IMG/VR virus record: IMGVR_UViG_3300043178_000179
From: a virus
Taxonomy: Duplodnaviria > Heunggongvirae > Uroviricota > Caudoviricetes
DNA: 64,000 nt
Direction: 5' to 3' (one strand)
The notes under the pieces were generated by a model. It made no database searches, was not told the origin of the DNA, and saw only the letters and a list, made by a program, of their open reading frames with translations. A program made the translations under genes and the position numbers. Shown one piece after another: positions 7,206 through 50,738 of this stretch (position 1 is its first letter; each line of letters opens with the position of its first letter).

Positions 7206-7494
7206 GATTCTCGATCCGCCCTACCGCGGCGCGACGAGCTACGCGGCGGACTGCCCGCGCGAGACGGTGCTGGCGATGGCGCTGGACCTGCGAGCCCGCG
7301 GCGCGCGGGTCGCGGTCTGCGAGGCGGAGCCGCTGGCTCTCCCCGGCTGGCATCACCTCGACCTGACGGGCGTGCGCAGCGCGGGCGGGCCCGGATCGTG
7401 GTCCGCACGGCGCGCGAAGGGCGAGTGGCTGACGCTCAGCGACCCGCCGGCGGCGAGGCCGGTGGTCCAGCAAGCGCTCTGGCGGTCCGCATGA
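6303..7494 (+). CDS. DNA methyltransferase, N6A/N4C type
   Basis: 'YVPFAGALGE' (motif I-like) and 'ILDPPYRGATSY' (motif IV, DPPY). GTG start overlapping the upstream stop. Confidence 0.6.
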
Positions 7495-26239: not shown

Positions 26240-26553
26240 CCTCGCGCGACCTCGCCCTCCTCCTCCCGGCCCTGGACCGCGCCACCGGCCGGCCGTGGAC
26301 GACGTGCGTGTGCGGCGACGGGCGGCTGCTCGCGTGGCCCGCGGGCGATGGCGGTCGCATCGGTGGCCAGCTTGCGCTCATCGAGTGCTGGACGCAGGAC
26401 GCCTACCGCTCAATGCCGCACACGATCCGGCGCGTGGTTCTCCGGTCGCAGTTCCGCGCGCTGGATGGCGACCGGCGGGACATTGAGGCCGGGCCCGGCT
26501 GGCCGATCCGGGCGGCTGCGGCCGTAGTCGAGATGCTGGCGGCGCGGACGTGA
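26236..26553 (+). CDS. small hypothetical protein ending in the shared '...RAAAAVVEMLA' junction motif
   Basis: GTG start. The 3' end is DNA-identical to the 3' end of ORF 4736..5002. Confidence 0.4.
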   Translation: MTSRDLALLLPALDRATGRPWTTCVCGDGRLLAWPAGDGGRIGGQLALIECWTQDAYRSMPHTIRRVVLRSQFRALDGDRRDIEAGPGWPIRAAAAVVEMLAART

Positions 26554-39497: not shown

Positions 39498-39526
39498 GGG
39501 CCTGGCAGGAGGATCGATGACTCTCA

Positions 39527-39927
39527 ACGAGATCGAGCGGCTGCTCACCTACCAGCCCCCGCGACCCGGGGAGGCCGCGGCACACGAGCTGCTGCGCAAG
39601 CAGGAGCAGATCATGTGGGAGATCGTGCAGGCGCTCCCGATCATCAAGCCCAGCCACGAGTCGATCGACGCCGCGGTCTTGGCCTTCGGCCGGGTGATCG
39701 TCGACGTCGTTCCCGAGGGCCCGGACAGTGTCGCGATCGGGCACCTCGCGCTCGCGCGGACCGCGCTGCACGAGCGGCTCCTGCTCGCTCTCCGGAGCGC
39801 CCCCAACGAGTTGGCGTCGGACGTCCCGCGCCTCACGGACCTCGCCTGGGCGGAGCTTCGCCGCGCTCGTCACATCGCCAGTACCGGCATCGCGATGCGT
39901 GGCCTGCGGAGCCGCGACGTGGCATGA
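39527..39927 (+). CDS. hypothetical protein
   Basis: Good RBS (CAGGAGGAT) before the ATG. Confidence 0.5.
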
Positions 39928-40168: not shown

Positions 40169-40831
40169 GTGCTGGCATGGCAACGCCGTGCAGGAGCGCC
40201 CACGGCGTGCCATGTTGTCGAGGTGGCGTTCCCGGAGAACCACTACCAGGTCCTCGGCGTCCTCCCGACGGCGCCGCGGGAGGAGCTGCGGGCCGCGTGG
40301 CTCCGGGTCGTCAAGCAGACGCACCCGGACCGGAATCCCGGGGACCGTGAGGCCGAGCGCCGGTGCAAGCAGGCGAACGCGGCCTGGCAGGTGCTCCAGG
40401 ATCCGGCCACCCGGGCGGCCTACGACCAGGAGCTCGCGCGTCAGGCGGCACGTCCCGCGCCGCCGCCCGCGCCGCCGCCGTCGGCCCCGACGCCGCCGCC
40501 ACGCCCGCCGTCCGGGCGCTTCCGGCACCGCCGGCACCAGGAGGCGCCGCCGCCTCCTCCACCTCCGCGGAGCAGTTGGTCCCCGCCCCCACCGCCCCCG
40601 CCTCCTCCTCGGAGTGGCTGGCCGCCGCCACCGTCCTGGGACGTTCCGCCGTGGACTCCACCGCGCCCCGCGTGGACGCCGCCGCCCTTCGCCCCAGCTC
40701 CGCTGGCGCCGCGCTTCGAGCCGTTCCGCCCGATGACGCCCACGGGTGGTCAGGTGCGCCTGGAGCGACAGTACGGGCGCTTCGGGGTCTGGAAGCGCAA
40801 CGGCATGCGCGTGACCTGGGACGAGGACTAG
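40169..40831 (+). CDS. J-domain (DnaJ-like) protein with a proline-rich C-terminal region
   Basis: 'HYQVLGVLPTAPREELRAAWLRVVKQTHPDRNPGD' contains the HPD motif. Confidence 0.6.
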   Translation: MLAWQRRAGAPTACHVVEVAFPENHYQVLGVLPTAPREELRAAWLRVVKQTHPDRNPGDREAERRCKQANAAWQVLQDPATRAAYDQELARQAARPAPPPAPPPSAPTPPPRPPSGRFRHRRHQEAPPPPPPPRSSWSPPPPPPPPPRSGWPPPPSWDVPPWTPPRPAWTPPPFAPAPLAPRFEPFRPMTPTGGQVRLERQYGRFGVWKRNGMRVTWDED

Positions 40832-41043
40832 TCCCGGAGCTTCTTCCAGGCGACGGTTGCCCCTAGGACGACGACGGCTGGTAGCACGACGACGTCGAAG
40901 AAGGCGTCCATCCGATCCTGGCAGCCCGGCGCGGCGCTCGGGCGCCGGCAGATGGTCACGAGCTGGGTGGACGCGAGCCAGGCCGCGCCGAGCAGGGCGA
41001 GCCCCGTCCCGTCCCGGTCCTGGTCTACCACCACTTGGCCCAT
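40828..41043 (-). CDS. holin-like small membrane protein
   Basis: 71 aa with two hydrophobic segments. Immediately downstream of the endolysin on the same strand. Confidence 0.45.
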   Translation of the reverse strand: MGQVVVDQDRDGTGLALLGAAWLASTQLVTICRRPSAAPGCQDRMDAFFDVVVLPAVVVLGATVAWKKLRD

Positions 41044-41855
41044 CCGCGTAGCTTCGACTTCGGCCGGTTGTAGGTGCCGACCCGGTTCGAGACGTTCCCT
41101 TCGATCGTGGCGACGGTCCCATCCCGGTTGTCCGCCACGACGAAGCCGGTGTGGCCGGCCTTGGCCGCGGCCGCGGCATCGGAACCGGAGTCGGCCCGGG
41201 CCATGGTGAAGATCGCGCCGCTCGGAATGACGGTCGCACCGCCGGCGACCCAGACCTTGCGCTTCTGAGCCCAGCTCTCGATCTGGGCCGCGCCCCCGAG
41301 CCAGGCGCCGAACGGGATCTCGCTCCAGCCGCCGACTCCGAGCCCCGCCTTCAAGGCCCAGCTCACGAAGATGGCGCACCAGGGCGGCATGGTCTTCAAG
41401 GTCTCGGGGTCGGTGATCTTCCAGTAGAGGTAGTAGGCGCTCGGCGCCTTGCCGTCCCCTCCCTCGTCCACGATGTGGCCGAGTTCCGGGCCGCCGTTGG
41501 AGCCCTCGGGGATCTCCCTGCGCCCGAGCTGCCGGACGGCGCTCTCCAGGACCGAGCGTACGGCCGCGGGCGCATCGGCAGGGATCCGGCCCAGCAGGGC
41601 CTTGCGCTGCGCCTCCAGGACGTCGTCCGGAGTCGGAGCGGTGCCGGTGCTCATCAGGAGGTTCCAGGTGAGCGGCCCGACGACTCCGTCCGGATCGATG
41701 CCCCGGCTGACCTGGAACTGCTCGACGGCCGCCTCGGTCTTGGCTCCGAAGTCCCCGTCGGCCATCACGGTGTAGCCGTGCGCGCTGAGCCGCTGCTGGA
41801 GGAGCGTCACGGCCGAGCCCTTGTCTCCGAGCCGCAGGGTGGGTTGGGTCGCCAT
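41025..41855 (-). CDS. endolysin: PG_binding_1 domain plus CHAP amidase/peptidase domain
   Basis: 'LRLGDKGSAVTLLQQRLSAHGYTV...DGDFGAKTEAAVEQFQ'. CHAP Cys 'PPWCAIFVSWALK' and His 'GHTGFVV'. Confidence 0.75.
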   Translation of the reverse strand: MATQPTLRLGDKGSAVTLLQQRLSAHGYTVMADGDFGAKTEAAVEQFQVSRGIDPDGVVGPLTWNLLMSTGTAPTPDDVLEAQRKALLGRIPADAPAAVRSVLESAVRQLGRREIPEGSNGGPELGHIVDEGGDGKAPSAYYLYWKITDPETLKTMPPWCAIFVSWALKAGLGVGGWSEIPFGAWLGGAAQIESWAQKRKVWVAGGATVIPSGAIFTMARADSGSDAAAAAKAGHTGFVVADNRDGTVATIEGNVSNRVGTYNRPKSKLRGWAKWW

Positions 41856-42035
41856 CGGGCCCTCCAGGATCCAGTGTATCGCCTCTTGACGCCTGGTGCC
41901 GCCGGGGGTAGCTTCCCCTCGTGACCTGCGCCTTCACCTCCTTGCGTCTCTCCCTCGGGCTGTTTCCCAGCTCGTGGTATCTGCGCGAGCCGGAGGAGGC
42001 GCAGGGCTGACGGATCCAACCAAGCCCGCCTGAAC

Positions 42036-42113: not shown

Positions 42114-42196
42114 GCGCGGATGGCGGAAACGGCAGACGCACCGAGCTCAAGCCTCGGCTCCCACGGGAACTGCGGGTTCGACTCCCGCTCCGCGCA
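42114..42196 (+). tRNA. tRNA-Leu (CAA)
   Basis: Acceptor GCGCGGA/TCCGCGC. Anticodon loop cTCAAgc. Long variable arm. T-loop TTCGACT. Confidence 0.8.
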
Positions 42197-42201
42197 CTCG
42201 T

Positions 42202-42287
42202 CCCGGTGTAGACGTCTATGGAGGACGGGCGGGCTGTAAACCCGTCGCCTTCGGGCCAGGGAGGTTCGATTCCTTCCACCGGGACCA
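42202..42287 (+). tRNA. tRNA-Tyr (GTA), CCA encoded
   Basis: Acceptor CCCGGTG/CACCGGG. Loop ctGTAaa. Long variable arm. Confidence 0.8.
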
Positions 42288-42291
42288 TCTT

Positions 42292-42380
42292 GGAGAGGCC
42301 GTCCTGCGTCGGCGCCAGGTACGCGGTTGGAAACCGCGTGGCCCTCATGGGGTCCGGGGGTTCGACTCCCTTCCTCTCCG
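42292..42380 (+). tRNA. tRNA-Ser (GGA)
   Basis: Acceptor GGAGAGG/CCTCTCC. Loop ttGGAaa. Long variable arm. Confidence 0.75.
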
Positions 42381-42385
42381 CTTGT

Positions 42386-42473
42386 GGCCGGGTGGTGGAA
42401 CTTTGGTAGACACGCCGCGCTCAGGACGCGGTGCTTTCGGGCGCTGAGGGTTCGACTCCCTCCCCGGTCACCA
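42386..42473 (+). tRNA. tRNA-Leu (CAG), CCA encoded
   Basis: Acceptor GGCCGGG/CCCGGTC. Loop ctCAGga. Long variable arm. Confidence 0.8.
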
Positions 42474-42477
42474 TCGT

Positions 42478-42563
42478 GTGCTCGTGGTGGAACATGGTAG
42501 ACACGCCGGGTTGAGGCCCGGTGCCCTCGGGCGGTGAGGGTTCGACTCCCTCCGAGCACACCA
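42478..42563 (+). tRNA. tRNA-Leu (GAG), CCA encoded
   Basis: Acceptor GTGCTCG/CGAGCAC. Loop ttGAGgc. Long variable arm. Confidence 0.8.
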
Positions 42564-42567
42564 TCAC

Positions 42568-42638
42568 AGGGGTCGTACAGGGTACGGGCTGGACTCCAAA
42601 TCCGGCCTTGAAGGGTTCGAGTCCCTTGGCCCCTGCCA
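42568..42638 (+). tRNA. tRNA-Trp (CCA), CCA encoded; compact D-arm
   Basis: Acceptor AGGGGTC/GGCCCCT. Loop ctCCAaa. T-arm aaggg-ttcgagt-ccctt. Confidence 0.65.
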
Positions 42639-42639
42639 C

Positions 42640-42726
42640 GGGAGCGTGGCCGAGAGGAAAGGCACCGGCTTGCTAAGCCGGCGAGGGTCCGGTGGGCCCG
42701 CGCGGGTTCGAGTCCCGCCGCTTCCG
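42640..42726 (+). tRNA. tRNA-Ser (GCT)
   Basis: Acceptor GGGAGCG/CGCTTCC. Loop ttGCTaa. Long variable arm. Confidence 0.75.
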
Positions 42727-42731
42727 CCTCT

Positions 42732-42804
42732 GGACAGGTAGCCCAGTCGGTAGAGCACTCGATTGAAGATCGGGGTGTCGGCGGTTCGATTCCGTCCCTG
42801 TCCA
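42732..42804 (+). tRNA. tRNA-Phe (GAA)
   Basis: Perfect acceptor GGACAGG/CCTGTCC. Loop ttGAAga. Confidence 0.85.
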
Positions 42805-42808
42805 CCTT

Positions 42809-42894
42809 GGAGGGTGTGCGCTCGTCGGCGAAGCGCGCTGGCCCCGAACGTCAGTGGTCCGATGGACCCGAGGGTTCGACTCCCTCACCCTCCG
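42809..42894 (+). tRNA. tRNA-Ser (CGA)
   Basis: Acceptor GGAGGGT/ACCCTCC. Loop ccCGAac. Long variable arm. Confidence 0.75.
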
Positions 42895-42898
42895 CCTT

Positions 42899-42986
42899 GG
42901 AGGACGTGCGCTCGTCGGCGAAGCGCACCGGCCTTGAACACCGGCGGCCCGTCTCGGGCCCGAGGGTTCGACTCCCTCGTCCTCCG
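42899..42986 (+). tRNA. tRNA-Ser (TGA)
   Basis: Acceptor GGAGGAC/GTCCTCC. Loop ctTGAac. Long variable arm. One C-A at the anticodon stem base. Confidence 0.65.
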
Positions 42987-43023
42987 CCTTGCCGCGCGGC
43001 CCATGCCGCGATATGGACCAGCC

Positions 43024-44184
43024 ATGAGCTGGGAGACCGCGAGCCCGGAGTTCCGACAGCAGGTGATCCGTCGGATCGAGCAGTCGGCCCGGAGGACCTA
43101 TCGCCAGCGCCTGCGGGATCCCGCCGCGCAGGACTTCCTCGCGTCGGTCGAGTTCGGTTGTCGGCGCCTCGACGCCGCGTGGGCGCGCGTCGGCTACACC
43201 TGGCCGGGCTGGACCTCCGGCCACGTCGCCCAAGTGAAGGCGATGTCCGAGCCGGTCCTGGGCCTCCCGCCCGGGACGATGGAGTCCAAGGTCGACGACG
43301 ACCTGGTGCTTTGCCAGATCCTCGGTCGGCGGTACGGCGGTCCCCTCTGGGTCCTGGAGGAGGACTGTGCCCGGGCGCTGGCCGCGACCGACCCGCCGAT
43401 CGACCTGATCTCGACGGAGGTGATGGAGTGCCGGCTGCGGCTGCCCTTTCCGTCGATCTGCCTCCAGCTCCCGCCGGTCTTCGAGCTGCACGACGAGCAG
43501 ACCGGCCGCGAGCACCCGGTCGAGGCGATCGAGGTCTGCATGACCTGGGGGCTGAACCTCGACCCCGAGCAGGCGCTCCGTTACCCGAACGCCCTGGCCG
43601 CGCGCCAGGCGCACGAGCCGATGCCGATGCTGCTGATCGTCGCGATCGGCAAGGCCCGAGGGTGTTTCGTCGGGGACGACGGCGTCCCGGTGCTCGACGA
43701 CACGCTCCGCAGCTTCACGCTCGGCGCCGGCCGCCGGGTGAGCGACTTCGGCAAGGTCTCGGGCCTCGACGCGGTCTACGTGGTGCTGAACCTCCTGATG
43801 GCCCTGAACGCGGGCTACCTGGAATCGCGCACGGTGGTCCCTTCCGGGCCGAAGAACCCGGCCAAGGCCGAGAAGCGCGAGCGCCGCGGCGAGGTGCTGG
43901 AGCGCCACACGCTGATCCGGCTCGGCCAGCGGGCGAGGGCGGCGTCCCCGCCGCGGCCCGCCCCGGCATCCGGTGAGCGCGACCCGGTGTCCGCGCACTT
44001 CGTCCGGGGCCACTGGCACTGCTACTGGGTGCGGGAGCCCGGAGACGACCCGGTCCTGTCGCGCAAGCCGGGGAAGAAGGGCGACGGCGAGCTGCACCTC
44101 GTCGCCCGGTGGGTGTTTCCCTTTCAGCGCGGGAGCGGGGGCCCGCCGGAGCCTCGCTATCGGGTCGCCGGATCGAAAAGTTGA
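43024..44184 (+). CDS. hypothetical protein (386 aa) embedded inside the tRNA array
   Basis: ATG start right after tRNA-Ser(TGA). Protein-like composition with no recognisable motif. Confidence 0.5.
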   Translation: MSWETASPEFRQQVIRRIEQSARRTYRQRLRDPAAQDFLASVEFGCRRLDAAWARVGYTWPGWTSGHVAQVKAMSEPVLGLPPGTMESKVDDDLVLCQILGRRYGGPLWVLEEDCARALAATDPPIDLISTEVMECRLRLPFPSICLQLPPVFELHDEQTGREHPVEAIEVCMTWGLNLDPEQALRYPNALAARQAHEPMPMLLIVAIGKARGCFVGDDGVPVLDDTLRSFTLGAGRRVSDFGKVSGLDAVYVVLNLLMALNAGYLESRTVVPSGPKNPAKAEKRERRGEVLERHTLIRLGQRARAASPPRPAPASGERDPVSAHFVRGHWHCYWVREPGDDPVLSRKPGKKGDGELHLVARWVFPFQRGSGGPPEPRYRVAGSKS

Positions 44185-44192
44185 CGACCCGC

Positions 44193-44220
44193 TTGACACC
44201 GCTCCATCGGGTGGTAAGGT
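44193..44220 (+). promoter_or_regulatory. candidate promoter TTGACA-16nt-TAAGGT (a second TTGACG sits 12 nt upstream)
   Basis: Consensus -35 plus TANNNT-like -10, directly before a 38-codon ORF and a strong terminator. Confidence 0.35.
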
Positions 44221-44367
44221 TCGCTCCATGAGAACGCGCTCCAACGAAGCGACCTGTCATCCGGCCCAGGCCGGACGACCGGTCGCGTGCGTGGAGAAGC
44301 GCATCGGTCGGCCGGATACCGACCGGGAGGTCTCCAAGGGATAGTCGCAGCGAGCGAAACCCGACGA

Positions 44368-44405
44368 GGCCCCCGGCACCGAGAGGTCCGGGGGCCTTGT
44401 CGTCT
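44368..44405 (+). terminator. hairpin terminator-like element (9-bp GC stem) immediately before tRNA-Arg
   Basis: ggcccccgg-(11 nt loop)-ccgggggcc followed by ttgtcgtct. Confidence 0.45.
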
Positions 44406-44478
44406 GGGCCCGAAGCTCAAATGGATGAGCGCCGGTCTCCGGAACCGGAGGTTGCGGGTTCGAGTCCCACCGGGCCTA
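44406..44478 (+). tRNA. tRNA-Arg (CCG)
   Basis: Acceptor GGGCCCG/CGGGCCT with G1-U72. Loop ctCCGga. One T-stem mismatch. Confidence 0.7.
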
Positions 44479-44545
44479 CCTTCAATCCTTGAAATCGCGA
44501 AACGAATGGCTGTCGGGCGGGCCGCCTCACGCTGGCCCGCCTCGT

Positions 44546-44621
44546 GTCCCCGAAGCTCAACTGGACGAGCGCCAGGCTACGGACCTGGATGTTGAGGGTT
44601 CGAGTCCCTCCGGGGATACCA
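44546..44621 (+). tRNA. tRNA-Arg (ACG), CCA encoded
   Basis: Acceptor GTCCCCG/CGGGGAT with G1-U72. Loop ctACGga. Confidence 0.8.
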
Positions 44622-44625
44622 TCAT

Positions 44626-44763
44626 GGCGAGGACGCCCTCCGGTTGGGCACAGCTTGAACACAGCTGCCTGCAAAGCAACACGCTGGCCTCCTCGGCCCG
44701 GGCGACCGGGCCCCCACGGCGAAGCGAACACGCTCCAAGTTGGTTCGATTCCAACCCTCGCCA
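44626..44763 (+). ncRNA. tRNA-shaped element (138 nt) with a ~68-nt insertion in the variable-loop position
   Basis: Perfect 7-bp acceptor GGCGAGG/CCTCGCC. D-arm gccc/gggc. Hairpin cagct-tgaacac-agctg. T-arm gttgg-ttcgatt-ccaac. The insert carries the hairpins ggcc-tcctc-ggcc and cccgg-gcgac-ccggg. Confidence 0.4.
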
Positions 44764-44771
44764 CCTCTCTT

Positions 44772-44908
44772 GGGGATGAAGCCTGTTGGTTCAGGCACAG
44801 GTACTCGGCACCTGCTTTCCGCAATCCCGCTGGCCTCCTCGGCCCGGACGACCGGGCCTCCTTCTGGCGAAGCGAACATGCTCAGGGGTTCGACTCCCCG
44901 CATCCCCA
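44772..44908 (+). ncRNA. second tRNA-shaped element (137 nt) with a homologous ~65-nt variable-region insertion
   Basis: Perfect acceptor GGGGATG/CATCCCC. D-arm gcct/aggc. Hairpin caggt-actcggc-acctg. The insert shares 'gctggcctcctcggcccgg.cgaccgggcc...gcgaagcgaaca' with the first element. Confidence 0.4.
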
Positions 44909-44965
44909 CCTTCTCGCCCCCGGCGTCGCTGGAGCCTTCCGGCTCGCGACGGCCGGCGAAACGCT

Positions 44966-45041
44966 GTGGTCGTAGCTCAACGGCTCAGAGCGCCGGGTTG
45001 TGGCCCCGGAGGTGCGGGTTCAACTCCCGCCGATCACCCCA
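44966..45041 (+). tRNA. tRNA-His (GTG), CCA encoded, C73
   Basis: Acceptor GTGGTCG/CGATCAC. Loop ttGTGgc. Discriminator C. Confidence 0.75.
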
Positions 45042-45042
45042 T

Positions 45043-45120
45043 GGTCTCGTGGTGAAGCCTGGAGTTCACGCTGGCCTGTCACGCCAGAGGTCGCGGGTTC
45101 AAATCCCGTCGGGACCGCCA
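45043..45120 (+). tRNA. tRNA-Asp (GTC), CCA encoded
   Basis: Acceptor GGTCTCG/CGGGACC. Loop ctGTCac. Confidence 0.8.
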
Positions 45121-45121
45121 T

Positions 45122-45194
45122 GGATCCATAGCTCAGATGGTAGAGCAGCGGCCTCTTAAGCCGACGGTCCAGGGTTCAAGTCCCTGTGGATCCA
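45122..45194 (+). tRNA. tRNA-Lys (CTT)
   Basis: Acceptor GGATCCA/TGGATCC. Loop ctCTTaa. Confidence 0.75.
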
Positions 45195-45246
45195 CCTTCA
45201 TTCGAGAGGAGGTTCGATGCACCCCAAACGCATCCCTGTGAGCTGC

Positions 45247-45319
45247 GGGCCCGAAGCTCACGGGTGAGCACCGGCCTTTTAAGCCGACAGGCAGGGTTCA
45301 AGTCCCTACGGGCCCACCA
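45247..45319 (+). tRNA. tRNA-Lys (TTT), CCA encoded
   Basis: Acceptor GGGCCCG/CGGGCCC. Loop ctTTTaa. Confidence 0.75.
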
Positions 45320-45393
45320 CCGGGTGTAGCTCAGCCTGGAAGAGCACCAGCCTTGGGCGCTGGACGTCGCAGGTTCAACCCCTGTCACCCGGA
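45320..45393 (+). tRNA. tRNA-Pro (TGG)
   Basis: C1-G72 acceptor CCGGGTG/CACCCGG. Loop ctTGGgc. Confidence 0.8.
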
Positions 45394-45440
45394 CCTGGAG
45401 GACACCATGTTCCGTCGACAACGACGCCTCGATTCGTCGC

Positions 45441-45510
45441 CGGGGCGTCCGCGGGAAGCGGCAGCCGGCCCTTGAAGCCGGTCAACTCGGTTCGATTCCG
45501 AGCGCCCCCG
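45441..45510 (+). tRNA. atypical tRNA-like (TTG anticodon, Gln-like) with C1-C72 mismatch and C33
   Basis: Anticodon hairpin ccggc-ccTTGaa-gccgg. T-arm ctcgg-ttcgatt-ccgag. Compact D-arm. Possibly a pseudogene. Confidence 0.35.
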
Positions 45511-45514
45511 CCTC

Positions 45515-45587
45515 CGCAGCGTAGCTCGGCTGGTAGAGCACCCGGCTCATACCCGGGCGGGCGTGGGTTCGAGTCCCACCGCTGCGA
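45515..45587 (+). tRNA. tRNA-Met (CAT), elongator or Ile2-type
   Basis: Acceptor CGCAGCG/CGCTGCG. Loop ctCATac. Lacks initiator features. Confidence 0.75.
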
Positions 45588-45590
45588 CTT

Positions 45591-45668
45591 CGGGCTGTGG
45601 CGAAGCCTGGTCATCGCGCCGGTCTGGGGGACCGGAGATCGCCGGTTCAAGTCCGGCCAGCCCGACCA
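45591..45668 (+). tRNA. tRNA-Pro (GGG), CCA encoded
   Basis: C1-G72 acceptor CGGGCTG/CAGCCCG. Loop ctGGGgg. Confidence 0.8.
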
Positions 45669-45672
45669 TCGT

Positions 45673-45747
45673 GCTCCCGTCGTCTAGCCCGGTCAGGACG
45701 GCGGCCCCTCAAGCCGCAAACGCAGGGTTCAACTCCCTCCGGGAGCA
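45673..45747 (+). tRNA. tRNA-Glu (CTC)
   Basis: Acceptor GCTCCCG/CGGGAGC. Glu-type 3-bp D-stem (t-cgtc-tag...gac). Loop ccCTCaa with C33. Confidence 0.7.
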
Positions 45748-45758
45748 CTTACCTTCCT

Positions 45759-45831
45759 GGATCCCAAGCTCAAGTGGTCGAGCGCGCGACTGTTAATCGC
45801 GTGGTGCTGGGTTCGAGTCCCAGGGGATCCG
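45759..45831 (+). tRNA. tRNA-Asn (GTT)
   Basis: Perfect acceptor GGATCCC/GGGATCC. Loop ctGTTaa. Confidence 0.85.
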
Positions 45832-45838
45832 CCTCCTT

Positions 45839-45913
45839 CCGGTCGCAGCTCGATGGTGGAGCATCCGCCTGATACGCGGGAGGCTGCTGGTTCAAGTCCA
45901 GCCGACCGGACCA
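45839..45913 (+). tRNA. tRNA-Ile (GAT), CCA encoded
   Basis: Acceptor CCGGTCG/CGACCGG. Loop ctGATac. Confidence 0.8.
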
Positions 45914-45917
45914 TCGC

Positions 45918-45991
45918 TGACCCTTAGCTCAACTGGCAGCAGCGCCCGGCTCTGGACCGGGAGGTTCCAGGTTCGACTCCTGGAGGGTCAA
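45918..45991 (+). tRNA. tRNA-Gln (CTG)
   Basis: U1-A72 acceptor TGACCCT/AGGGTCA. Loop ctCTGga. Confidence 0.75.
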
Positions 45992-45995
45992 CTTC

Positions 45996-46067
45996 GACGA
46001 CGTGGCCGAGAGGTGAGGCAACGGTCTGCAAAGCCGTTCGACGCCGGTTCGACTCCGGCCGTCGTCT
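45996..46067 (+). tRNA. tRNA-Cys (GCA), U73
   Basis: Acceptor GACGACG/CGTCGTC. Loop ctGCAaa. Discriminator U. Confidence 0.8.
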
Positions 46068-46126
46068 CTTGGGGCCGGCCCGTGGCCCCTGGGCGTGCCG
46101 ATGCCCAAGTCCGGTCGCGCTTGGCA

Positions 46127-46218
46127 GCTCTTCGGAGCACCGGGACTGCCGTCCCGGGTTGCGCTTGGCGCGGGCAGCTCTTCGGAGCGCCGGGACTGCC
46201 GTCCCGGGTGGACGACGC
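46127..46218 (+). repeat. tandem ~45-nt repeat, each unit carrying two hairpins (gctc-TTCG-gagc and cccggga-ctgccg-tcccggg)
   Basis: 'gcgcttggc[...]agctcttcggagc(a/g)ccgggactgccgtcccgggt' occurs twice back to back between tRNA-Cys and tRNA-Pro. Confidence 0.6.
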
Positions 46219-46305
46219 GGGAAGCCGCAGCTCGAAGCGACGCTGGCACCGTCGCCGACGGCACCGCAATCGCGGCCAGGGGAGGTAGACGGTAGCCTTC
46301 CCATC

Positions 46306-46379
46306 TCGGGGTGTAGCTCAGCCTGGAAGAGCGGCGGTTTCGGGAGCCGCAGGCCGTGGGTTCGAGTCCCGCCACCCCG
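46306..46379 (+). tRNA. tRNA-Pro (CGG)
   Basis: C1-G72 acceptor CGGGGTG/CACCCCG. Loop ttCGGga. Confidence 0.8.
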
Positions 46380-46813
46380 ACTTCGATCGCTTCCGAGTGC
46401 CCGCCTCGGAATCCGGATTCAGGGCGGCTGGATCGCCGCGGGCTGGTGGAGGGCAACCGCTGCCCCCAGTGCCTTGGGCATCCAGCGCCCTCGGCACACC
46501 CCTCTGGGGATGAAACGGTCTCGACGGGGTACGCAGGCTCGAATCGGCGTCGCAGGCGAGGAGCGGCCTTGACAGCCCACACGGCAAACTGCCAACAACA
46601 ACAACCACTTCGAGGCCCGCGCCGCGGCGTAGGCTTCGAGGTCCAGGGGCTTCGAGCCCCTGGCGTTCGGGGAGGAAGCTGGCCGAGCTTCCCTGGGCGC
46701 ATCCCAGGCCCGGCAGGTCCACTGGTGAACGCGACTCGACCGGTGGATCGGAGTGCATCGAGCGCTGACTGCCCGGGAAAGACGGGCGACACCCGCCGCT
46801 GGGTCACGCGGCA

Positions 46814-46874
46814 GGCGACGTAGCTGGTGACGGTGAGCGTGTTCCGGACGCGGGTTCGACTCCCGCCATCTCCA
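46814..46874 (+). pseudogene. truncated or degenerate tRNA (Gly-TCC-like anticodon hairpin, no variable region, 2 acceptor mismatches)
   Basis: D-arm plus hairpin gcgt-gTTCCgg-acgc, abutting the T-arm gcggg-ttcgact-cccgc. Confidence 0.3.
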
Positions 46875-46878
46875 CTTT

Positions 46879-46952
46879 GCGGCTGAGACCTCGAAGGTGA
46901 GGGCCCGCCTTGCCAGGGCGGGATGGGACGGGTTCGACTCCCGCCAGCCGCT
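46879..46952 (+). tRNA. tRNA-Gly (GCC), U73
   Basis: Acceptor GCGGCTG/CAGCCGC. 6-bp anticodon stem. Loop ttGCCag. Irregular D region. Confidence 0.6.
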
Positions 46953-47022
46953 CCTCGACGTGATCCCTGATCCTCCTTTGTGTCCAGAACCGATCGTGTG
47001 TCCAATCCAGGGGTCGCGTCCT

Positions 47023-47095
47023 GCCCTCGTAGCTCAGCCGGAAGAGCGCCGGTTTCGTAAACCGGAGGTCCGGGGTTCGATGCCCCGCGGGGGCT
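47023..47095 (+). tRNA. tRNA-Thr (CGT)
   Basis: Acceptor GCCCTCG/CGGGGGC. Loop ttCGTaa. Confidence 0.8.
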
Positions 47096-47100
47096 CCTTG

Positions 47101-47172
47101 GCCCGGGTAGCTCAGTGGTGGAGCACCGCCTTGGTAAGGCGGCGGCCATGGGTTCAAGTCCCATCCCGGGCT
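47101..47172 (+). tRNA. tRNA-Thr (GGT)
   Basis: Perfect acceptor GCCCGGG/CCCGGGC. Loop ttGGTaa. Confidence 0.8.
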
Positions 47173-47339
47173 CCTCGTCACCGGCCGGTCTCCGGCCGTC
47201 GCTGACGTTGGGACGAGCGGTGGCCAGTCCCCGCCGGAACCACGCCCGTTCGCGCGGGCGCCGGCGGAAGACCCTGGGCCATCCGAAAGGCTGGCTATAA
47301 ACCGGCTCGACCGGAGCAAACAGGGTTCCACCGCACTTC

Positions 47340-47411
47340 GCGGCCATGGCCGAGAGGTCAGGCACCGCGTTCCCAGCGCGGACGACGCGGGTTCGAGTCC
47401 CGCTGGCCGCT
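47340..47411 (+). tRNA. tRNA-Gly (CCC), U73
   Basis: Acceptor GCGGCCA/TGGCCGC. Loop ttCCCag. Confidence 0.7.
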
Positions 47412-47541
47412 CTTCGAGGAAGCGCAGCGGACGAGGCTTTGGCCCGGCCCGCGACCGTTTCACCGCGGGAGGGCGTTCGCCCGGACCACGGCGCGGTGTT
47501 GGGCCGGGGTGGGTAGCGAGCGGCTGACCAGCTTCCTCTTC

Positions 47542-47614
47542 GCAGGCGAGAGGCCAACGGTGGCCGCCTGGCCTTCCAAGCCGGGACGGACGGGTTCGAT
47601 CCCCGTCGCCTGCT
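47542..47614 (+). tRNA. tRNA-Gly (TCC), U73
   Basis: Acceptor GCAGGCG/CGCCTGC. Loop ctTCCaa. Confidence 0.7.
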
Positions 47615-47618
47615 CCTT

Positions 47619-47691
47619 GCCCGCAGGAGTGCGACTGGCAGCATGCTGGCCTTGTAAGCCGGCCGTCCCGGTTCGAGTCCGGGTGCGGGCT
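47619..47691 (+). tRNA. tRNA-Thr (TGT)
   Basis: Acceptor GCCCGCA/TGCGGGC. Loop ctTGTaa. Irregular D-arm. Confidence 0.65.
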
Positions 47692-47696
47692 TTCGG

Positions 47697-47772
47697 CGGC
47701 GCGTAGCTCAGGTGGGAGAGCACCAGCTCGACAAGCTGGGGGTCGCAGGTTCGAGCCCTGCCGCGCCGACCA
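47697..47772 (+). tRNA. tRNA-Val (GAC), CCA encoded
   Basis: Acceptor CGGCGCG/CGCGCCG. Loop tcGACaa with C33. Confidence 0.7.
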
Positions 47773-47915
47773 TCGACTGCACGGACACTCCTACACAAGT
47801 CCTCCGGATGCCCTGTCCGTGCGCCGCTGCGGGCGGTTTCGTTGGGGCGACAGGGGCTCAGGCTGGCCGGCGGGCCGAAGCACGCGCCTGGTAGAAGGCG
47901 CGTGGCGCCGGCAAC

Positions 47916-47988
47916 GGGGACGTAGCTCAGTTGGGAGAGCGCGGCGTTCGCAACGCCGAGGCCACGGGTTCGACTCCCGTCGTCTCCA
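47916..47988 (+). tRNA. tRNA-Ala (CGC) with the G3-U70 identity pair
   Basis: Acceptor GGGGACG/CGTCTCC. Loop ttCGCaa. Confidence 0.85.
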
Positions 47989-47992
47989 CCTT

Positions 47993-48065
47993 GGGGTCGT
48001 AGCTCACCTGGGAGAGCGCCAGAATGGCATTCTGGAGGTAGAGGGTTCGAGTCCCTTCGACTCCA
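47993..48065 (+). tRNA. tRNA-Ala (GGC) with the G3-U70 identity pair
   Basis: Acceptor GGGGTCG/CGACTCC. Loop atGGCat. Confidence 0.85.
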
Positions 48066-48067
48066 CT

Positions 48068-49336
48068 TCACCTCGGGCAGGCGAGCCCGGTGCTGGGCGC
48101 GTCCCAGCGCTCGTACTCCTTGGCGAGCACGTCCTCGATCCCGGCTCTCGGGTTCTCGGCTCGCCAGGCGGCGACCTGTTCGCGGATCGGGACGAAGCCG
48201 TAGGCGACGTTCTTGTCCTCGAACACGGTGATCGGTCGGCCCTCGCGCTTCCACCGGGCCACGACGGGGTTCCAGGTCCCGGTCCTCCGGAGCTTGGCGA
48301 CGCGCTTCTCGGGGAAGAGCGCCATCTGCGCGCCCCGCAGCGCGACGGCCTCGGCCTCCCACCGTTCGACCTCGCGGAAGAAGGCCGGCTCGATGACCGA
48401 CAGCGCCCAGTACCAGGACACGTCTTGGTACTTGCACATCATGCAGCCGGACTTCTGGACCCCGGAGAAGCCGCCGGCCGCGAGGATGCTCGGCTCGTCG
48501 AAGTGGGTGAGCCCGATCTGCCGCGCGGCCTTCTTCCGGGCCGCGGCGATCCGGTCTCGGTCGACCTTGGGGAGGCCGTCCAGGTCCTCGCGCTTGGTGA
48601 CCCCCATCTCGACGAGCGGGTAGGCGTCGCCCTCCCAGGCGAAGCGGCCCTTCTGGCTCGGCTCCAGCCGCAGCGCGCGCCGGGCCTCGTCGGCCGCGAT
48701 GCCGAGCAGCACGAGGTGGGACCGCCGGCGTCCCGCGAGCACGAACCGGTTCCACTCGGCGGTTCCGACGCCGAACCGTTCTCGACTCAGGTCGTCCATG
48801 AGTTCGCGGCCTGGCTCGACCTTGTGGTTCATGGTGCAGTCGGCCGGCTTCTTGAGGATGATCATGCGCCGGCTGGCGTAGTCGTCGAGGATCGGCGGTC
48901 GCCGGTGGTAGTAGCCCCGCGCGGCGCGGGCCTCGATGCTCTTCGGCGGGTCGCGCCGCCAGGGCGGGGTCAGCACGGGCAGGCGTTGCCCGGGCCGGGC
49001 CTCGCGCATCCGGCCGAGCTCGCGCAGCCAGGCGATCCACCCGTCGGGGCCCTTGGCCGGGGGCTTGCGCTGGACGATGAACCGCAGTCCGTGCCGGCTG
49101 GTGAGCTTCTCGATCCTCGGGATCAGGTCGTAGGTCGCGGGCCACTCGGCGCCGGGATCGGTGAACACGACGGCGTCCACGTCGCCCGGCCGGATGGTCT
49201 CGCCGTCCGCGATCAGTCCGGGCCCGACGAGCAGCAGCAGCATGGTGATGCTGTCGCGGCCCAGGCCGAGTCGGAGCACGACGAGGCGGTCCTTCTTCGC
49301 GCCCTTCGCGGCGTCGAGCAGCGCGTCGAGGTCCAT
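48068..49336 (-). CDS. PAPS reductase-like PP-loop family protein (third, divergent paralog) carrying the N-terminal DLDALL motif; lies inside the tRNA array
   Basis: 'MDLDALLDAAKGAKKDR' then 'LVVLRLGLGRDSITMLLLL' (degenerate PP-loop). 'GCMMCKY'. Confidence 0.5.
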   Translation of the reverse strand: MDLDALLDAAKGAKKDRLVVLRLGLGRDSITMLLLLVGPGLIADGETIRPGDVDAVVFTDPGAEWPATYDLIPRIEKLTSRHGLRFIVQRKPPAKGPDGWIAWLRELGRMREARPGQRLPVLTPPWRRDPPKSIEARAARGYYHRRPPILDDYASRRMIILKKPADCTMNHKVEPGRELMDDLSRERFGVGTAEWNRFVLAGRRRSHLVLLGIAADEARRALRLEPSQKGRFAWEGDAYPLVEMGVTKREDLDGLPKVDRDRIAAARKKAARQIGLTHFDEPSILAAGGFSGVQKSGCMMCKYQDVSWYWALSVIEPAFFREVERWEAEAVALRGAQMALFPEKRVAKLRRTGTWNPVVARWKREGRPITVFEDKNVAYGFVPIREQVAAWRAENPRAGIEDVLAKEYERWDAPSTGLACPR

Positions 49337-49394
49337 GGCCTCAAGCGTAGCCCGGCTTGACCTCCGCCGGCCACGGAACTACGTCGCGGTCGTG

Positions 49395-49607
49395 AGCGAG
49401 CCTCCGACCCCCGAGCGCATCGTGGCCGCGATCGAGTCCTGGCAGGCGGACCCTTACGTCCACCCGCTGACTTGCGGCTGGGACTCGCAGAACCACCGGC
49501 CGCTGCGGCCCCGCCGCGACGGGGACCAGGTGGTGCTGGTCTGCGAGGACTGCGACTACGTCCAGCGCTGGGTTCCGGCCGTGGTGCTGGGCCGCACGGG
49601 AGCGTAG
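49395..49607 (+). CDS. small Cys-containing protein
   Basis: GTG start. 'LTCGWDS...LVCEDCDYV'. The 3' end overlaps tRNA-Ala by 10 nt. Weak call. Confidence 0.25.
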   Translation, partial: SEPPTPERIVAAIESWQADPYVHPLTCGWDSQNHRPLRPRRDGDQVVLVCEDCDYVQRWVPAVVLGRTGA

Positions 49608-49670
49608 CTCAGTTGGGAGAGCATCGGCTTTGCAAGCCGGGGGTCGCGGGTTCGAGTCCCGCCGCTTCCA
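49598..49670 (+). tRNA. tRNA-Ala (TGC) with the G3-U70 identity pair
   Basis: Acceptor GGGAGCG/CGCTTCC. Loop ttTGCaa. Confidence 0.85.
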
Positions 49671-49677
49671 CCTTTCG

Positions 49678-49761
49678 AGCAGGGGTGCAGCATCGGTTCC
49701 GCTGGGAGGGCTCATAACCCTCCGGCTTCGGCCCAACCGGGTTCGACTCCCGGCCCTGCGT
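49678..49761 (+). tRNA. atypical class-II-like tRNA: CAU anticodon plus a 14-nt variable arm, A1-G72 mismatch
   Basis: D-stem cagc/gctg. Anticodon hairpin gaggg-ctCATaa-ccctc. Variable hairpin cggc-ttcg-gccc. T-arm ccggg-ttcgact-cccgg. Confidence 0.4.
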
Positions 49762-49769
49762 CCTTCTTT

Positions 49770-49841
49770 GCCCGCGTAGCCGACTGGGAAGGCGGCGGTC
49801 CTACAAACCGCTTCATGCAGGTTCGATTCCTGTCGCGGGTA
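49770..49841 (+). tRNA. tRNA-Val (TAC)
   Basis: Acceptor GCCCGCG/CGCGGGT. Loop ccTACaa. Confidence 0.8.
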
Positions 49842-49848
49842 CTTCGTC

Positions 49849-49923
49849 GCTGCCGAAGACGAAGCGGTCCAGTCACTGGTCTTTCAAGCCCGTCATTAGC
49901 GGGTTCGAGTCCCGCCGGCAGCA
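49849..49923 (+). tRNA. tRNA-Glu (TTC)
   Basis: Perfect acceptor GCTGCCG/CGGCAGC. 3-bp D-stem. Loop ctTTCaa. One U-C mismatch in the anticodon stem. Confidence 0.6.
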
Positions 49924-49930
49924 CCTTCAC

Positions 49931-50003
49931 GCGCCCGTAGCTCAGCTGGAAGAGCACCGACCTTCTACGTCGAGAGTCGTGGGTTCGATTCCCTCCGGGC
50001 GTA
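49931..50003 (+). tRNA. tRNA-Arg (TCT)
   Basis: Acceptor GCGCCCG/CGGGCGT. Loop ctTCTac. Confidence 0.7.
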
Positions 50004-50004
50004 C

Positions 50005-50078
50005 GTCCCCGAAGCTCAATGGAGGAGCGCCGGTTTCCTAAACCGGGCCAGTTGCGGGTTCGAGTCCCGCCGGGGACA
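50005..50078 (+). tRNA. tRNA-Arg (CCT)
   Basis: Perfect acceptor GTCCCCG/CGGGGAC. Loop ttCCTaa. Confidence 0.75.
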
Positions 50079-50123
50079 CCTTTCGTCCTGTCCGACAGCC
50101 ACGTTTGCGATTATGGATCGGTC

Positions 50124-50738
50124 ATGGAGACCACCGTACTGGTCCTGGACGCGGCGTACCAGCCGCTCAAGGTCGTCCCCTGGCAGAGGGCGATCGAGCT
50201 GATCGTCTCGCAGAAGGCGAACCTCGTCCAGGAGTACGCCGGCCGCGTCGTGCGGTCCGCGAAGCTGACCCTGCCGCTCCCGGCGGTGGTCGTGCTCCGC
50301 CGGTACGTCCGGCTCCGCAACCGGGTGAAGTTCAACCGCCGGAACGTGCTCGCGCGCGACGCGCACCGCTGCGGCTACTGCGGGACCCGTCCGCTCCGTC
50401 GCGACGGAAAGGTGGACCTGGCCGAGCTGACGATCGACCACGTCGTCCCCCGGGCGCAGGCTCGGGACGGCCGGGTACGGCTGCCCGGGGGCCGCGAGGT
50501 CCCGGTGACCTGCTGGGAGAACGTGGCGACGGCGTGCATCCCCTGCAACATGAAGAAGGCGGACCGTCGGCCCGACCAGGTCGGGATGACGCTCCGCCTG
50601 ACGCCCCGGAAGCCGAACGAGCTGGACATCCTGCGCATGGCGCTTTCCCGGGTGCAGGTCCCCGAGGAGTGGAAGGACTACCTGCCCAAGGACTCCTCCT
50701 GGGTGGACTACTGGGACGTCCAGCTCGACGCAGACTGA
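50124..50738 (+). CDS. HNH endonuclease
   Basis: 'RDAHRCGYCG...LTIDHVVPRAQ...WENVATACIPCNMKKADR' (CxxC...H-N-H...CxxC). Confidence 0.7.
   Translation: METTVLVLDAAYQPLKVVPWQRAIELIVSQKANLVQEYAGRVVRSAKLTLPLPAVVVLRRYVRLRNRVKFNRRNVLARDAHRCGYCGTRPLRRDGKVDLAELTIDHVVPRAQARDGRVRLPGGREVPVTCWENVATACIPCNMKKADRRPDQVGMTLRLTPRKPNELDILRMALSRVQVPEEWKDYLPKDSSWVDYWDVQLDAD

Follow-up and report, generated by a model that had tools for sequence, protein, structure and literature searches.

The tRNA arrays of phages are the subject of a debate between two explanations, compensation for codon usage and escape from host defences that cleave tRNAs. In a 2019 survey of viruses, clusters of 15-37 tRNA genes were described that have a density of 2-10 genes per kb and cover up to 34 codons (PMC6409571). 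Array units of 26-27 tRNA genes are found on giant mycobacterial plasmids of more than 200 kb (PMC12803027), and the viral clusters and the plasmid units have both been considered a putative anti-defence device (PMC6409571, PMC12803027). The Streptomyces phages of cluster BE1 (e.g., Jay2Jay) carry 43-48 tRNA genes and one transfer-messenger RNA (tmRNA) gene (PMC5764925), and van den Berg et al. (PMC10264068) elaborated the idea of independence from the host tRNA pool in mycobacteriophages. Here we analyze a 64,000-nt stretch of DNA (hereafter, the window) from an uncultivated virus of the class Caudoviricetes (IMG/VR record IMGVR_UViG_3300043178_000179), in which ARAGORN predicts an array of 41 tRNA genes and one tmRNA gene on the plus strand at positions 42114-50080. 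With 41 genes and 40 anticodons, compared to the 15-37 genes and at most 34 codons of the survey, this array is among the largest compact clusters on record.

ARAGORN identified 44 RNA genes over the whole window. The original prediction, obtained by hand folding, had placed about 43 tRNA or tRNA-like genes on a single strand at 42114-50078, and it holds in both respects: the program returned 41 tRNAs rather than a few, all of them on the plus strand, and two oversized tRNA-like genes of ~140 nt, missed by ARAGORN and Rfam, raise the total to 43. The Rfam tRNA model is passed at the gathering threshold by 32 of the 41 genes, and eight others, a group that includes the class II Tyr and Ser tRNAs, Trp, two Gly and a long tRNA with the CAU anticodon, score below threshold with the related tRNA-Sec model in a relaxed search (E<0.15). 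Covariance-model support is thus available for 40 of the 41 tRNAs, and only the 'Gln ttg' gene at 45442-45509 lacks it even at relaxed thresholds. Sub-threshold Rfam matches to tRNA-Sec, YrlA, plastid and other families were dismissed as by-products of tRNA-likeness. The acceptor stem is fully paired (7/7) in 39 of the 41 genes, and the identity features noted from the hand folds were all confirmed in the sequences, namely G3-U70 in all three Ala tRNAs, C1-G72 in all three Pro tRNAs, U1-A72 in Gln(ctg) and U73 in Cys. The cloverleaf, the conserved T loop and the acceptor stem mark the array members as bona fide tRNA genes, with Gln ttg being doubtful. The 41 genes in 7,967 bp correspond to a density of 5.1 per kb (10 genes in 875 bp in the first block), which places the array within the definition of a viral tRNA gene cluster (at least 15 tRNA genes at no less than 2 per kb; PMC6409571).

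Codon coverage was evaluated by standard wobble rules and compared with 16,218 codons from 61 genes of the window. The 41 tRNAs have 40 distinct anticodons, only one of which is repeated, and read 58 of the 61 sense codons and 99.9% of the window codons; the codons left without a reader are ATA (3 uses), CTA (9) and TTA (0). Coverage of nearly all amino acids, as originally proposed, was an understatement, since all 20 are represented. The tRNAs for near-unused codons, such as AAA (2 uses), AGA (9), TCA (11) and ACA (12), are present along with readers of the commonest codons GCC, GCG, CTG, CTC and CGG, and the suggested comparison of codon usage with the anticodon set therefore shows readers regardless of codon frequency. 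The G+C content at third codon positions (GC3) of the phage genes is ~0.9, and the GC content is 71% overall and 0.67-0.74 in each 2-kb window, indicating neither a compositional island nor a low-GC phage in a high-GC host. A full set of tRNAs in a phage of uniformly high GC content argues against compensation and for independence from the host tRNA pool. We conclude that the array probably constitutes a near-complete virus-borne set of translation RNAs that makes the phage independent of the host tRNAs, rather than a correction of codon mismatch. Of the two functions named in the original prediction, translational autonomy fits better, and codon-usage compensation is poorly supported given the 71% GC content and the tRNAs for unused codons. 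Such an array would sustain phage translation whatever the state of the host tRNAs, for example after cleavage by anticodon nucleases or host shut-off, and the tmRNA would release stalled ribosomes.

The tmRNA gene (46506-46877, plus strand), which was omitted from the earlier inventory of the array, was found by both ARAGORN and Rfam, with a full-length match (1-374) to RF00023 of 63 bits against a cut-off of 47. The score above threshold, a tRNA-like domain with the acceptor GGGGAUG/CAUCUCC and its G3-U70 pair, and a tag open reading frame (ORF) that encodes ANNNNHFEARAAA and ends with a stop codon identify it as a one-piece tmRNA. Its 3' end was considered as a host indicator and rejected as uninformative because it is conserved across phyla. 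The encoded 3' ends of all 43 tRNAs in the window continue past the discriminator with CCA in 11 genes, CC in 17, C in 12 and nothing in three. The array appears reliant on 3' trimming and the host CCA-adding enzyme. The tRNAs would be transcribed as polycistronic precursors with spacers of 1-5 nt, and, as most genes encode only C or CC, their maturation would require the host RNase P, trimming by a 3' processing nuclease, and the CCA-adding enzyme. The 3' trailers within 42114-50080 mostly read CC-T-T or C-T-T in place of CCA. Tandem Leu/Leu and Ser/Ser neighbours are 80-83% identical, and the isoacceptor families have apparently been expanded through local tandem duplication.

Genes in the window were called with a codon-bias model, because all frames are open at 71% GC. 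The promoter pattern TTGACn-N16-18-TAnnnT has four matches on both strands of the 64 kb, all four at gene starts, compared to ~0.45 matches expected in 128 kb by our estimate from base composition. The start codon follows the -10 element by 6-7 nt at three of these sites, which points to leaderless mRNAs, and by 13 nt at the fourth. Two of the four, P1 and P2, head the array, which is apparently organized in three rightward transcription units. Each unit would be transcribed from a host-type sigma-70-like promoter followed by a leaderless ORF, in the actinobacterial style.

The first unit starts with P1 (TTGACG-N17-TAGCTT, 41886-41914), followed 6 nt after the -10 element by the leaderless short ORF L1 (41921-42010; GTG start, 29 codons, VTCAFTSLRLSLGLFPSSWYLREPEEAQG), whose GC content by codon position is.59/.56/.86. 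A perfect 15-bp hairpin with the T-rich tail TCGTTTCT lies 110 nt downstream of P1 (42032-42066, -35 kcal/mol) and is terminator-like. The original prediction had recognized this hairpin as a strong terminator downstream of the endolysin and holin genes; the structure is real and its placement was wrong, since the lysis genes are on the minus strand and the hairpin lies upstream of the endolysin start, in the divergent intergenic region after L1. Block 1 (42114-42988) comprises ten tRNA genes separated by 1-5 nt, in the order Leu caa, Tyr gta, Ser gga, Leu cag, Leu gag, Trp cca, Ser gct, Phe gaa, Ser cga and Ser tga; this and the other blocks are located by ARAGORN and Rfam. The unit ends with the gene for a 386-aa AcrVA2-like protein (43024-44184, plus strand).

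The second unit has promoter P2 (TTGACA-N16-TAAGGT, 44193-44220), the leaderless ORF L2 (44228-44344; 38 codons, GC3 0.77, MRTRSNEATCHPAQAGRPVACVEKRIGRPDTDREVSKG) and a hairpin of -38.5 kcal/mol (44362-44402) that has TTGTCGTCT after its inner stem and ends 3 nt before the first of two tRNA-Arg genes (ccg and acg, 44406-44621). The oversized tRNA-like genes 1 (44626-44765, 140 nt) and 2 (44772-44910, 139 nt) come next, followed by the 14 genes of block 2a (44966-46381; His, Asp, Lys ctt, Lys ttt, Pro tgg, the doubtful Gln ttg, Met/Ile2 cat, Pro ggg, Glu ctc, Asn, Ile gat, Gln ctg, Cys and Pro cgg), the tmRNA gene, and the nine genes of block 2b (46879-48066; Gly gcc, Thr cgt, Thr ggt, Gly ccc, Gly tcc, Thr tgt, Val gac, Ala cgc and Ala ggc). 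In total, 25 tRNAs, the two ~140-nt genes and the tmRNA are encoded between 44406 and 48066. Two plus-strand mini-ORFs with GGAGG Shine-Dalgarno sequences and ATG starts overlap tRNA genes of block 2a: one (45217-45267, MHPKRIPVSCGPEAHG) overlaps tRNA-Lys ttt and holds the very rare AAA codon, and the other (45407-45475, 22 codons) overlaps the doubtful tRNA-Gln ttg and includes a CAA codon. The spacer between Cys and Pro cgg (~46117-46210) has two adjoining copies of a ~45-nt element with the hairpins GCUC-UUCG-GAGC and CCGGGAC-UGCC-GUCCCGG, for which no Rfam match was found.

A gene for a 422-aa PP-loop protein (48068-49336) is located on the minus strand between the second and third units. 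The third unit begins with P5 (TTGACC-N17-TACGTC, 49357-49385), a promoter-like site read from the sequence that is weaker than P1 and P2 and has a start codon 6 nt downstream. The corresponding leaderless ORF (49392-49607, GC3 0.93) encodes 71 aa with Cys-pair motifs, has its stop codon inside tRNA-Ala tgc, and was called as a gene on an identical metagenome contig too; a homologue search found none. Block 3 (49598-50080) contains Ala tgc, the class-II-like CAU tRNA of 86 nt, Val tac, Glu ttc, Arg tct and Arg cct, and an HNH endonuclease gene lies directly past the array (50124-50738, plus strand; Pfam HNH 4e-6, phrog_16726 3e-29). The array is thus interrupted by three protein genes, the AcrVA2-like gene and the 71-aa ORF on the plus strand and the PAPS-reductase/DndC-like PP-loop gene on the minus strand, and not by two as stated before.

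Only a short ORF and a strong hairpin, and no further promoter, are found between P1 or P2 and the tRNA genes, so that the tRNAs must arise by read-through. Promoter, short ORF, terminator-like hairpin and the lack of an intervening promoter make up the layout of an attenuator in both P1-L1 and P2-L2. The codon content of the two leaders corresponds to different parts of the array. Thirteen of the 28 L1 residues are Leu, Ser, Phe, Tyr or Trp, exactly the amino acids of block 1, compared to two of 37 in L2 (Fisher P=1.7e-4); Leu, Phe, Tyr and Trp are absent from L2, which includes all 15 amino acids of the tRNAs downstream of P2. Nine of the ten block 1 anticodons read L1 codons (P=2.2e-4 by comparison with 13,900 real gene windows), for which real 28-codon windows of phage genes give a mean of 4.07, with 0.02% of them reaching nine. 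The L2 codons are read by 19 of the 25 downstream anticodons (P=0.0096) and by one of the ten in block 1. The pairing energies in the L1 region are -49.9 (1:2), -32.0 (2:3) and -35.1 (3:4) kcal/mol. In a masking scan, a ribosome at L1 codons 1-9 frees segment 2 to pair with the 5' half of the terminator (12 bp), and the terminator strand stays free if no ribosome is present or if one sits at codons 20-30; this predicted response to ribosome position is trp-attenuator-like. For L2, the antiterminator forms by default, and only a ribosome on codons 29-35 abolishes it. The antiterminator duplexes are stronger than 99.4% (L1) and 96% (L2) of dinucleotide shuffles.

Leaderless polycysteine short ORFs are known to act as attenuators in mycobacteria (bioRxiv 10.1101/834739), and a literature search found no report of a leaderless short-ORF attenuator preceding tRNA genes. 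We tentatively suggest, as a possibility rather than the expected outcome, that translation stress switches on tRNA expression via leader attenuators that sample the tRNAs they control. With plentiful charged tRNAs, a ribosome would reach the end of the leader and cover the antiterminator strand, and transcription would stop; upon depletion of the host tRNAs, for example by anticodon nucleases, a lagging or stalled ribosome would allow the antiterminator to form and the phage tRNAs to be made. The same attenuation could operate locally at tRNA-Lys(UUU) and at the Gln(UUG)-like gene, which are preceded by the mini-ORFs with AAA and CAA codons, and on this tentative reading the two ~140-nt tRNA-likes with their common 70-nt insert would be a new RNA class. 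Several points count against attenuation. The codon-matching pattern was spotted after looking at the sequences, and L1 is hydrophobic and L2 hydrophilic, which by itself separates their compositions; the second hairpin has no clean U tract, and the predicted pairings come from a single sequence that has no relatives for covariation. If true, leader units sensing translation would allow a virus to time its tRNA supply to the state of host translation, and would represent a new use of an old regulatory principle.

Myrnavirus phages, which we take to be mycobacteriophages of the cluster C type, have a leader of their own. An unannotated sigma-70-type promoter precedes the tRNA array in ScoobyDoobyDoo (3815-3998) and in Phabba and Myrna (~400-585), and in all three phages it is followed by a leaderless ORF of 24-25 codons (MFTTADTTRGMLERAPYRPWHKRV) and two conserved hairpins. 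Despite an ATG/GTG start swap and an in-frame 3-nt indel, the reading frame of this ORF is conserved, at 82-85% nucleotide identity. Its invariant codons are TAT-CGA-CCG-TGG-CAT, and the array then starts with Trp, Pro and Tyr tRNAs; the codon matching is not significant in this leader (P=0.14), and no antiterminator alternative was found for it. Bxz1 and the Rhodococcus phage Grayson have no clear equivalent of the leader.

The array contains a number of unusual RNAs. The 344-nt 'gap' at 44622-44965 holds two extra T-arm/acceptor motifs, one for each of the ~140-nt genes, and the minimum free energy folds of both genes are complete cloverleaves with a variable region of ~70 nt. Gene 1 has the anticodon loop UGAACAC and A73-CC (fold z=-2.9), and its boundaries are found by ARAGORN only when an 'intron' is allowed. 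Gene 2 has the anticodon loop ACUCGGC, i.e., the anticodon UCG, and also A73-CC, and the core of its insert is ~90% identical to that of gene 1. A motif derived from these genes was matched once in IMG/VR, by chance within a coding region, and not at all in the metagenome collection. Unannotated T-arm/acceptor-like motifs ending in CACCA are present in the spacers of the Bxz1 array (7132-7436), indicating that odd tRNA-like remnants are not unique to this window.

Several of the tRNAs deviate in the anticodon loop. C33 replaces the near-universal U33 in five of them, Ser cga (42809), Gln ttg (45442), Glu ctc (45673), Val gac (47697) and Val tac (49770), compared to one of 31 and one of 27 tRNAs in the control arrays of Jay2Jay and ScoobyDoobyDoo, Val-GAC both times. 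In Val(GAC), C33 is shared by the three phages compared and was rejected as a special mark; the unusual cases are the other four. The tRNA-Leu(GAG) gene (42478-42563) has a 6-nt anticodon loop, UUGAGG, beside a CCC run, and its 83%-identical neighbour Leu(CAG) has an ordinary 7-nt loop; the short loop is either a true deletion or an assembly error in homopolymer length (CCC versus CCCC). The C33 loops and the 6-nt loop are changes in the direction proposed for nuclease evasion (PMC10264068), and the anti-defence-type gene inside the array and the tmRNA fit tRNA independence; all of this is consistent with the proposed function and is not proof of it.

The 86-nt CAU tRNA (49678-49763) has a long variable arm of class II shape, U73 and an A1-G72 mismatch. 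It is closest to the Ser and Leu genes of the array (66-69% identity) and could be a Ser/Leu-type body that reads AUG or, once modified, AUA; one of the two CAU tRNAs could be of the Ile2 type. The tRNA-His gene (44966-45041) has C73, an encoded CCA and T at position -1, so that G-1 is not encoded; bacterial histidyl-tRNA synthetase normally requires G-1. The doubtful Gln ttg combines C33 with a 4-bp T stem and the lack of covariance-model support, and Trp has a reduced D arm; Leu gag with its 6-nt loop, the class-II CAU tRNA and the two 140-nt genes complete the list of non-canonical members. Together with the leader units and both 140-nt tRNA-likes, this class-II CAU tRNA and the C33 loops are unexplained extras.

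Two further tRNA genes are found on the plus strand outside the array. The first is a class I tRNA of 76 nt with the anticodon CAA (33246-33321, Rfam 50.9 bits), which thus has a Leu anticodon without the long variable arm; it has 54% GC and two acceptor mismatches, including a C-A pair atop the stem in the Rfam register. The second, 8 kb upstream of the array, is of the ochre-suppressor type with the anticodon UUA (34276-34351, Rfam 55.6 bits), and forms a canonical cloverleaf with U73 if started at 34277. Its 3' end overlaps the third sigma-70-type promoter (34350-34402), whose leaderless transcript opens with a 5-codon ORF, MRSFW, with a TAA stop. The stop codons of the window are TGA in 57 cases, TAG in 16 and TAA in one; TAA ends only one of 75 called genes. 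Stop recoding by the UUA tRNA was considered and rejected, as no in-frame TAA has coding signal on both sides.

The lysis cassette is located next to the array on the opposite strand and diverges from it. The endolysin (41025-41855, minus strand) contains PG_binding_1 and CHAP domains (Pfam 3e-17 and 1e-8) and matches 12 PHROG endolysin families. Directly downstream is the gene of a 68-aa holin-like protein with two hydrophobic, transmembrane (TM) segments (40828-41034, minus strand), which has no family match in Pfam or PHROG. A DnaJ-domain protein (40223-40831, 4e-18) is encoded just left of this cassette. Among the PHROG matches in the window are phrog_2045 (1e-79), phrog_200 (7e-52), HNH endonucleases and DNA methyltransferases. 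The phage-like context beside the lysis genes that had been proposed is therefore borne out by the lysis, HNH and PHROG matches, and no virion gene was seen in it. The 847-aa protein encoded at 153-2696 has no match over its N-terminal 700 residues and carries a peptidoglycan-binding domain at the C terminus; it may be a virion-associated lysin and is the sole hint of a structural gene in the window.

The assignment of the 386-aa protein as AcrVA2-like is based on a precomputed PF26125 match on an identical metagenome protein and on homologues, and on its C-terminal H-x-R-R-G-H-W-H region. A profile of the protein with three homologues gave a single match among 177,635 PDB sequences, AcrVA2 itself (7ci1_A, E=0.098), aligned on the conserved RGHWHxYW segment. 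This segment includes residues important for the activity of AcrVA2, which is known from experiments on AcrVA2 to cause translation-dependent destruction of its target mRNA (bioRxiv 10.1101/2022.11.29.518452). The 422-aa PP-loop protein belongs with PAPS-reductase, DndC and BrxP-like families (phrog_424, 1e-12; weak SspD and BrxP matches). None of its 31 homologues, and none of the located homologues of the AcrVA2-like protein, lies in a tRNA array; the neighbours of the former are methylases and Mom-like genes. A role of the PP-loop gene in tRNA modification (e.g., as TilS) was rejected because it groups with these phage families, has two paralogues outside the array, and has homologues in DNA-modification neighbourhoods. 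The three paralogues in the element are at 14947-15921, 48068-49336 and L010:2900-4027. The element also encodes Dam, an N6/N4-type methyltransferase (26550-28334) and a methyltransferase-like protein (61199-62335). Its gene content suggests a heavy investment in DNA modification, and the 386-aa and 422-aa proteins look like counter-defence or DNA-modification cargo that is not tRNA-related. A 136-aa protein (39517-39927) has a below-threshold match to the Acb2/Tad1 hairpin domain (E=0.002). Acb2 and Tad1 are anti-CBASS and anti-Thoeris sponges.

Two independent metagenomes, one a Logan assembly and the other from JGI, contain sequences 100% identical to the window, on contigs of up to 95,018 bp, and the only other contigs that carry these genes are the identical ones. 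Scans of IMG/VR with the two in-array proteins found no relatives, and in the phage and plasmid collections no record covers more than ~6% of the array, all matches being to single tRNAs. The BLASTN comparison with phage databases that had been suggested gave no shared array: megablast and blastn matches have the size of single tRNAs and cover at most 3% of the array, and protein matches are below 40% identity and spread across unrelated phages. At the genome-wide level, the element does not belong to the lineage of the cluster C mycobacteriophages or the BE1 Streptomyces phages, and it appears to be a singleton lineage without a cultured or catalogued relative. The leaderless promoters, the GTG starts and the lack of spanin genes would point to an actinobacterial host.

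Compensation for codon usage is the classic explanation for phage tRNAs (discussed in PMC6409571, PMC10264068), and would here mean that the array supplies tRNAs for phage-frequent codons that the host decodes poorly. Although the array does include readers of A/U-ending codons, tRNAs for which would be scarce in a high-GC host, these codons are near-unused in a 71% GC window with GC3 of ~0.9, and the set is complete rather than selective, with the readers of the commonest codons included; we therefore consider this explanation unlikely. Another view is that the array is decayed or a decoy, consisting of drifting duplicates or of nuclease decoys or sponges that no longer decode. The tandem duplication of isoacceptors, the 6-nt loop, C33, the reduced D arm, the class-II CAU tRNA and the 140-nt tRNA-likes could be read in this way, as could the unannotated remnants in the Bxz1 array. 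However, the perfect 7-bp acceptor stems in 39 of 41 genes and the retention of the Ala, Pro and Cys identity features and of the discriminators make it quite improbable, and the 40 anticodons with a single repeat, in tightly packed genes, are the opposite of what random duplication would produce.

There is also only a slight chance that the element is not a phage at all and belongs to a high-GC bacterium, as part of a large plasmid, an integrative element or a chromosomal island. No virion gene was recognized in the window and 7.4 kb upstream, two proteins match the plasmid-associated family PcfJ, homologues of AcrVA2 are found on plasmids (bioRxiv 10.1101/2022.11.29.518452), and the mycobacterial plasmids with units of 26-27 tRNA genes (PMC12803027) have weak tRNA-level matches to this array. 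These observations are outweighed by the endolysin and the adjacent 2-TM protein, which form a lysis cassette, by the strong PHROG families, and by the small, densely packed genes with many HNH endonucleases and methyltransferases. Moreover, no relaxase, type IV secretion system, ESX, Par or Rep match was found, any one plasmid covers 6% of the array at most, and a tmRNA inside the array is seen in the phage arrays examined (BE1, PMC5764925; Jay2Jay).

The interpretation of the array as a translation kit independent of the host tRNA pool has its own weak points. No capsid, portal, terminase or tail family was recognized in the window and 7.4 kb upstream, so that 'phage' is not proven and depends on the lysis, HNH, methyltransferase and PHROG matches. 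The tRNA-His without an encoded G-1 also speaks against a fully working set, and several non-canonical members may not decode. Compensation would become plausible again if late genes beyond the window made greater use of rare codons, as they might. The combination of uniform high GC, a near-complete decoding set and a tmRNA makes this element a clean test case in the debate on phage tRNA arrays, one in which compensation explains little and a supply independent of the host explains more.

Comparison with known systems places the locus among them as follows. The leader units resemble the trp-type and mycobacterial attenuators in having a promoter, a short ORF with matching codons, and predicted alternative RNA pairings; they differ in that the target would be a tRNA operon instead of amino acid biosynthesis genes, and in that L1 and L2 sample many codons without a run of any one. 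The plasmid array units share with this locus an HNH gene beside the array, and have 26-27 genes against 41 here. The BE1 phages are similar in tRNA number and in the tmRNA, the 3' end of which is 97% identical over 36 nt. In contrast, the tRNAs of Jay2Jay are dispersed over more than 20 kb among dozens of small ORFs, with RNA ligase and polynucleotide kinase genes, whereas here 44 RNA genes are packed with three protein genes into 8 kb and no tRNA-repair enzymes are found in the window. The GC content of BE1 genomes is far below that of their hosts, which makes compensation plausible in BE1 and not here.

The closest architecture is that of the cluster C-type phages (Ceeclamvirinae: Bxz1, Myrna and ScoobyDoobyDoo), which have compact one-strand arrays and a host of actinobacterial style; the likeness to large actinophage arrays seen in the original prediction is thus upheld, with a comparable size. 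ScoobyDoobyDoo has 29 tRNAs in 3.5 kb on one strand, including one of the amber-suppressor type, and a suppressor-type tRNA is present both in these phages and in this element. The Bxz1 array is interrupted by genes for an HNH endonuclease and a lysin-like protein. The locus differs from the cluster C-type arrays in its 41 genes against roughly 29-36, its fuller codon coverage and its 71% GC, and in the presence of the AcrVA2-like gene and the two 140-nt tRNA-likes, and relatedness is limited to single tRNAs. Private decoding kits of phages are known from large actinophages, and the array described here is an unusually complete example of them.

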